DNA of 64,000 bases from a virus, in IMG/VR virus record IMGVR_UViG_3300044966_000489; one strand, given 5' to 3'. Position 1 is the stretch's first letter. Each line of letters begins with the position of its first letter. Position numbers and translations under genes: made by a program. Below, one piece after another: positions 42,744 to 42,945 of the stretch. The notes under the pieces are model-generated. The model made no database searches, had not been told where the DNA came from, and worked only from the letters and a program-made list of their open reading frames with translations.

Positions 42744-42945
42744 TTGGCACGGTCCATGCTCCCAGCACGTTTCATGCCAAGTCTAGGTTGGCACACTCTT
42801 TGCTCCCCAGCAAGTCCTATGCCAAGTCCGTGGAAACGATAGTTTTCCAATCTGGGGTCCCCAATTCCGAAAACTATGGTTGCCCATAGGTTGGCACGTT
42901 TCCTGCTCTGGCATGGTTCCTGCTCCCCAGCAAGAGTCGTGCCAA
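42744..42945. promoter_or_regulatory. Cluster of seven sigma54-type -24/-12 sites
   Basis: YTGGCAY-N5-NTGCT at 42744+, 42764-, 42788+, 42809-, 42891+, 42908+ and 42929-. Confidence 0.7.
42839..42877. repeat. 39-bp dyad element, copy 1
   Basis: atagttt tccaatct ggggtcccc aattccga aaactat. Confidence 0.95.

Follow-up and report, generated by a model that had tools for sequence, protein, structure and literature searches.

Alternating σ54-type sites between the packaging and early genes of an uncultured freshwater phage: a putative docking array for host RNA polymerase

Seven σ54-type sites, most of them in alternating orientation, are clustered at positions 42744-42945 of the window, i.e., the 64,000-nucleotide stretch of IMG/VR record IMGVR_UViG_3300044966_000489 analyzed here, which is part of the genome of a large, uncultured, tailed freshwater phage. 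Our main interpretation, which we hold with about as much confidence as doubt, is that host σ54 holoenzyme parks in an unactivated state on the first-entering DNA of this phage and serves there as a clamp or insulator, not as a promoter; the binding, the host and the position of the genome end are predicted. Sites for σ54 in phages have so far been treated as occasional promoters, whereas here they form selected, alternating arrays in more than 100 viral contigs. These arrays are located at the boundary of packaging and early genes and are almost absent from bacterial genomes.

The array and its genomic setting

All seven 17-bp sites named in a preliminary description of this DNA are present at their positions, and each of them retains GG(-24) and GC(-12) with 10 bp in between despite differing spacers, as had been claimed. 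The sites reach 16.7-21.7 bits with an approximate σ54 matrix, which was built from the consensus and is not a published matrix. With this matrix, seven sites of at least 13 bits are found in 202 bp, whereas 2000 dinucleotide shuffles averaged 0.04 and never exceeded 2. The order of the array is + - + - [39-bp element] + + -, and it comprises three head-to-head pairs, one tail-to-tail pair and one abutting tandem. Site 1 (42744-42760, plus strand, 18.6 bits) is placed head-to-head with site 2 (42764-42780, minus strand, 16.7 bits) across a gap of 3 bp, site 2 is tail-to-tail with site 3 (42788-42804, plus strand, 19.7 bits) across 7 bp, and site 3 is again head-to-head with site 4 (42809-42825, minus strand) across 4 bp. 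On the other side of the element, site 5 (42891-42907, plus strand) is followed without a gap by site 6 (42908-42924, plus strand, 18.3 bits), which is head-to-head with site 7 (42929-42945, minus strand, 21.7 bits), again across 4 bp. The three head-to-head gaps read CCC, CCCC and CCCC, just as reported. The axis of the array is copy 1 of a 39-bp dyad element (42839-42877), which the cluster indeed brackets: the inner sites 4 and 5 flank it symmetrically at 13 bp on the left and on the right, respectively, and point outward, so that the dyad falls at about -41 to -79 of both.

The same description had seen palindromes of 37-38 bp in the head-to-head pairs. This did not hold up, as the symmetry is that of the motif positions alone: the spacers of partner sites are 32% identical, compared to 34% for random pairing, and only one of 226 pairs is fully complementary. 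A hairpin or structured RNA was also considered and set aside, because the similarity of partner spacers does not exceed that of random pairs; an Rfam search of the array returned no match near the gathering score.

Two single sites lie further to the right. The first (44515-44531, plus strand) aims at element copy 3 (44537-44575), 5 bp away, and at a terminator-like hairpin; it points antisense into the element, and no sense gene follows it. The second, weaker site (45715-45731, plus strand) aims in the same manner at element copy 5 (45737-45775), likewise 5 bp away. A 12-bp GTGA-N4-TCAC dyad is found in both of these modules (44484-44495 and 45684-45695), between a leftward σ70-like promoter and the rightward σ54 site.

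The genes to the left of the array are encoded on the minus strand and include PhoH, a phage σ70-family factor that is not σ54-like (38775-39467, minus strand; Sigma70_r2, E 5e-5), an ERCC4 nuclease, and the terminase large subunit terL (34890-36731, minus strand; phrog_2, E 1e-26), whose start lies 6.0 kb from the array, the array being upstream. To the right, a GC-richer block of small genes extends over ~11 kb and is followed by tRNAs. This early-type block (42125-52931) is bounded on its left by an intrinsic terminator 3′ of paralog A (42129-42151, minus strand; terminator scan) and consists of small cassettes divided by 14 copies of the 39-bp element, all of fixed length, from 42839 to 52931. 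By analogy to T5, the block might represent first-entering DNA or a long terminal repeat. The array is found at the terminase-side edge of the block, between two divergent paralogous genes. Among close relatives (L011, L013, L014, L019, L028, L039), the cassettes between the 39-bp elements (window 42839-52931) are reordered; neither a tyrosine recombinase nor IHF/HU was found in the partial family records, which are incomplete genomes.

Paralog A (42157-42624, minus strand) is GC-rich and encodes 155 aa with a predicted SH3/Tudor-like β barrel fold (pLDDT 86) that contains no helix-turn-helix. Searches with this protein gave no PHROG, Atlas or Foldseek match, and its best VIA Z of 5.0 (BAH/Tudor/Sm barrels) is within background. 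Paralog B (43068-43496, plus strand) is AT-rich, encodes 142 aa and is 38% identical to paralog A. Upstream of paralog A, a weak σ70-like promoter, TTGCAA-N16-TAACTT (42677-42704, minus strand), was recognized by eye and is below the scan threshold; the nearest σ54-type site is ~40 bp upstream of its weak candidate -35 hexamer (42699-42704). At the start of paralog B, three TATAAATA boxes are found (43034-43083, plus strand; at 43034, 43053 and 43076). These boxes resemble the T4 late promoter, which suggests that the paralogs are an early/late pair. The longest contig that bears paralog A measures 167.8 kb, and identical copies are present in JGI and ENA metagenomes, the JGI series presumably being that of Lake Mendota. 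By terL, no cultured phage is a close relative, the best reaching about 24%.

Identity of the motif

The assignment to σ54 in the preliminary description is borne out by the spacing, by a position that was left unfiltered, and by the occurrence of the motif in phages with unrelated terminases. Over ~100 loci, part of which were fetched by the motif itself, the core occurs 734 times at the σ54 spacing, compared to 8-20 times at each of four neighboring spacings; in the upstream region of loci that were fetched by their sigma gene, the respective numbers are 101 and 2-11. The logo of 502 unique sites matches the published -24/-12 consensus (PMC12316311) and carries no information after -11. Position -20, which lies outside the filter, is G in 66% and A in 26% of these sites, and T(-14) is found in 96%. 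By every sequence test that was run, the sites are thus of the σ54 type. Neighboring unique pairs are inverted in 234 of 269 cases, and in 32 of 33 in the unbiased, sigma-anchored set, with gaps between head-to-head partners that vary from 1 to 8 bp across loci.

Since the motif is shared by phages with unrelated terminases, a host protein is indicated, and a shared host protein appears to be the simplest reading. Alternatively, another protein might bind, such as the small subunit of the phage terminase, a repressor or the paralogs themselves, with the match to σ54 reflecting mimicry or coincidence. Inverted repeats would suit dimeric proteins, the array has the paralog genes on its two sides in the window clade, and σ54 binding is predicted from sequence. 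However, the same 17-bp consensus recurs in phages that have unrelated terminases and no paralog, partner gaps of 1-8 bp would be intolerable to a rigid dimer, and the paralog is a predicted β barrel lacking a helix-turn-helix. Moreover, no Sigma54_DBD homologue was detected in the three partial family records searched. We therefore give little credence to a different binder.

Conservation and spread

As judged from comparison with its relatives, selection maintains the array, with site orientations that alternate and a number of sites that varies. In 19 cluster variants from close relatives, the two sites adjacent to the element are always found 13 bp from it and facing outward (offsets of -30 for site 4 and +14 for site 5, in 19/19 each). 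The outer sites vary among the same variants: they are gained and lost in units of ~45 bp, giving a total of 6-10 sites, and spacers are freely exchanged. In an unbiased sample, the array is carried by all seven close relatives for which 5 kb or more of upstream sequence is available. At a larger distance (55-63% sigma identity), the relatives are mostly marine and carry 0-2 sites at the corresponding place. Several deeper freshwater lineages have more, up to 25-28 sites, which are found at every early cassette junction and are often antisense; in several family members, sites are dispersed over 5-14 kb of cassette junctions. Many family members have neither a σ54 array nor a DnaA array near this position.

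DnaA-box arrays, often of inverted pairs, occupy in a marine subclade the early region in which freshwater lineages have σ54 sites: 11 boxes were counted in L144 (L144:451-6103), compared to 0.8 in shuffles, eight in L143 (L143:244-1788) and five in L138 (L138:155-339). No DnaA box is present in the early block of the window. The IHF consensus is enriched only in L007, L072, L086 and their kin, and in the window clade does not exceed the control. Where it is enriched, doubled, overlapping and inverted IHF-consensus sites are found at cassette junctions, where they follow inward-facing σ54 sites downstream at fixed distances of 18 and 30 nt (L086:470-1790, L021:400-3720, L007:6620-12100, and L072). 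In the early region of yet another locus (L194:1207-5045), inverted pairs of TTGACA hexamers are repeated around a GC-rich dyad; these could possibly be decoys of the σ70 -35 element.

The head-to-head pair pattern was detected in at least 119 IMG/VR viral contigs, compared to one contig for a control with the spacer lengthened by one, and a slightly narrower pattern had four matches in 596 Gb of prokaryote genomes. One of these four is a 21.9-kb contig with 39% GC in a Methylococcus MAG (L055), which encodes a 55% homologue of the early GP88-like gene of this phage and is probably a misbinned phage contig. Of the 174 loci that carry the pair, 131 form a single linked group and the others are divided among five small groups and 27 singletons; the terminases of the carriers are unrelated. 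In 15 of the 16 records that have both, the pair lies 5′ of a PF03237 terL; as ~131 of the 174 loci belong to one linked group, these do not amount to 16 independent cases, and G007 was left out of the tally given that its terminase was unconfirmed by Pfam. The distance between pair and terL is 1.5-2.1 kb in five small phages, in which the array lies just before the terS position, and 4-21 kb in large phages, with 6.0 kb in the window. In one record (L074), the region that separates the terminase operon from the first early promoters is filled by eight sites. The junction of packaging and early genes is a common place of phage genome ends. Among close relatives, contig ends accumulate around this junction, where repeats could also break assemblies. 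The preliminary reading, which had proposed docking or roadblocks as well as titration, had missed this recurrent position in many phages and the DnaA boxes in relatives; its docking part fared well and its titration part poorly, as detailed below.

The location next to the terminase genes raises the possibility that the concatemer junction is marked, for terminase or for duplication of a terminal repeat, by bound σ54 holoenzyme, joined by IHF in those phages that have IHF sites. Host factors are not foreign to packaging: host IHF acts at the cos site of lambda, and RNA polymerase takes part in packaging initiation in T7 and T4. The short distance to terL and the location before the terS position in the five small phages, the array at the very record end in G027, and site-IHF-site layouts in L021 and L086 that recall cosB would all fit a landmark of this kind. 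Yet sites spread over 5-14 kb of cassette junctions, as seen in several members, are more than a single cut site would require, and use of one host factor would have had to arise in all of the unrelated terminases, which makes a role as packaging landmark improbable in our view.

Cultured phages gave no further examples. Ten cultured phages related to array carriers have no array, and blastn of the arrays against 50,697 phage records yielded short chance matches only. One candidate, a σ54-like site just inside the terminal repeat of Vibrio phage WD615 (L403:315-331) that is followed by an IHF-consensus site, was set aside because three relatives keep the IHF site and lack the σ54 site.

Promoters or parked polymerase

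The arrangement of the sites argues for predicted binding without transcription. Each of the seven sites in the window has another site within 25 nt downstream, i.e., in its start region, and the earlier suggestion of a non-promoter use in docking or as a roadblock is supported for this reason. Across the family, only 14 of 278 unique sites are unobstructed and have a sense ORF within 300 nt, a number that serves as a rough guide given the crude ORF calling.

One of the observations against a clamp is that the inner pair aims at the paralogs with the dyad upstream, at the distances given above, which is a classical promoter-like layout. The corresponding hypothesis is that the sites are true σ54 promoters, the inner ones being divergent promoters of paralogs A and B that are served by a host enhancer-binding or bending protein at the 39-bp dyad, and the outer ones tuning or repressing them. 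Infection would then be tied to a nitrogen or stress signal of the host. In addition to the invariant distance of 13 bp between inner sites and element, this hypothesis could draw on the IHF-consensus doublets at fixed distances from sites in other lineages, on the use of a σ54-like promoter by phage YuA (PMC10914365), and on a GAFTGA activator encoded by one array-bearing phage, G035. We nevertheless consider it unlikely. The predicted start of each inner site is covered by another site, the two single sites (44515 and 45715) aim at an element, with no sense gene after the former, and most family sites are blocked, antisense or geneless. Furthermore, L013, L019 and L028 have the cassette of paralog B in the opposite orientation relative to the array, and the window clade shows no enrichment of the IHF consensus. 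The earlier proposal that the sites drive the two paralogs keeps some likelihood, as the invariant pair is aimed at them, but other promoter candidates are available to both, i.e., the σ70-like promoter of paralog A and the TATAAATA boxes of paralog B.

An activator would be expected to accompany promoters of this type, and the preliminary description had called for a search. No PF00158 domain was found in seven partial family records (G002-G004, G006, G008-G010; clade genomes 30-81% complete), and an activator of this family exceeds the cut-off in only one of 32 array-bearing records. In G035 (53 kb, CheckV 100% complete), a stand-alone AAA+ activator with an intact GAFTGA motif is encoded (L376:1315-2259, minus strand; PF00158, E 2e-53), which has no Pfam receiver or helix-turn-helix domain; in the literature searched, no GAFTGA activator encoded by a phage came to light. 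G035 also has single, unobstructed σ54 sites that are oriented with its genes, plus an inverted triplet at a divergent junction. Activator and gene-oriented sites together imply that phages can use σ54 sites as true promoters, and the layout of G035 shows, at the level of sequence, that the inverted cluster is a feature separate from promoter-type single sites.

The host is probably a verrucomicrobial bacterium that is rpoN-positive. A relative with at least 14 sites, G006, encodes a PVC-type prepilin/H-X9-DG protein (L264:18791-19477, plus strand) for which three of five named homologues are from Verrucomicrobiota, and rpoN is reported in Verrucomicrobiia (PMC12316311). G006 also encodes two further ECF-like sigma factors (L264:9183-9812 and L264:16114-16632).

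If host σ54 is bound, the arrays might also act as a decoy: after replication, they would soak up σ54 and shut off the host σ54 regulon, e.g., a defense or stress response. Orientation would be irrelevant to such a sponge and copy number could vary, and some relatives hold 15-28 sites. However, titration, which had been among the initial proposals, turned out to be weakly founded, because an incoming genome brings only nine sites and because trapped core polymerase would presumably hurt a phage that needs host core for its own sigma factor. In addition, a sponge would require neither a fixed geometry to the 39-bp element nor a place beside the terminase. We judge the decoy hypothesis to be a poor prospect.

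A tentative mechanism and its implications

Parking of σ54 holoenzyme as a clamp or insulator could proceed as follows. The starting point is the -24/-12 element itself, which is under selection, as described above. Without an enhancer-binding ATPase, σ54 holoenzyme is established to form a stable closed complex that does not transcribe (PMC3844500), and RpoN holoenzyme can repress by itself (PMC8743547). If the block that starts at the array enters the cell first, the ready-made host protein would load ahead of any phage protein. Two sites per ~45 bp that face both ways might then keep the spot occupied in either direction. The parked enzyme would be a physical block that separates the strong early cassettes of mixed orientation from one another and from the packaging operon, and it may also shield or anchor the entering DNA end. 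DnaA boxes might take the same role in one marine subclade, as at the injection-stop region of T5.

A broader hypothesis is that a cis-acting loading zone at the end that enters first has arisen by convergence in many unrelated tailed phages; this zone would recruit a host DNA-binding machine without the help of a phage protein. The unactivated σ54 polymerase would be a clamp that serves DNA entry, insulation or the protection of the end, with DnaA boxes being interchangeable with its sites in sister lineages. This generalization is put forward tentatively, and we lean against it more than toward it. If true, viruses would make non-transcriptional use of a sigma factor, which would generalize the unexplained DnaA boxes of the T5 injection-stop region. 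If the arrays act as clamps, rpoN would be a host factor for infection that is unrelated to receptors, and the role of host-protein boxes in first-entering DNA, such as those of T5, could be tested by placing a 200-bp element on a plasmid in E. coli. For uncultured phages, the motif might additionally aid in predicting where the genome ends and which hosts are rpoN-positive.

Comparison with known systems

No description of such arrays was found in the literature covered, which leaves out most subscription papers. The closest counterparts in bacteria are the σ54 -24/-12 promoters, such as glnAp2 and nifH (PMC12316311, PMC3844500), which the array resembles in its core and in the exact GG-N10-GC spacing and, in some phage lineages, also in nearby IHF-consensus sites. 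Unlike these promoters, the array is dense and alternating, its start regions are covered by neighboring sites, and mostly no sense gene follows; the partial genomes of its clade have no activator, and the pairs are nearly absent in bacteria (the four matches in 596 Gb). The "repressive promoters" of RpoN in E. coli share with the array an unactivated holoenzyme that blocks DNA, which is predicted in our case (PMC8743547). They are, however, single chromosomal sites that compete with overlapping σ70 promoters, whereas the present sites form phage arrays. Use of host σ54 by a lytic phage is known from promoter P015 of Pseudomonas phage YuA, a single functional promoter (PMC10914365). In YuA, neither a match to the strict site pattern nor an array was found.

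T5 presumably has a gene order similar to that of the window phage, i.e., terminase side, early block, and tRNAs. T5-like phages carry paired DnaA boxes in inverted repeats of the first-entering DNA, for which a role in injection was proposed (bioRxiv 10.1101/866236). The likeness of this injection-stop region to the array lies in the paired boxes for a host protein, in inverted repeats and within a non-coding part of an early block of ~10 kb, and it extends to the marine relatives of the window phage, which carry DnaA boxes as well. In contrast to T5, in which injection proceeds in two steps, the window has σ54 sites and no DnaA box in its early block. Moreover, by analogy to T5 the array would lie at the terminase-side edge, whereas the T5 injection-stop region lies at the far end. 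The array thus lacks the free start regions and sense genes of σ54 promoters as well as the DnaA boxes of the T5 injection-stop region, and by analogy it would combine the workings of RpoN repressive sites with those of host-factor arrays at genome termini.
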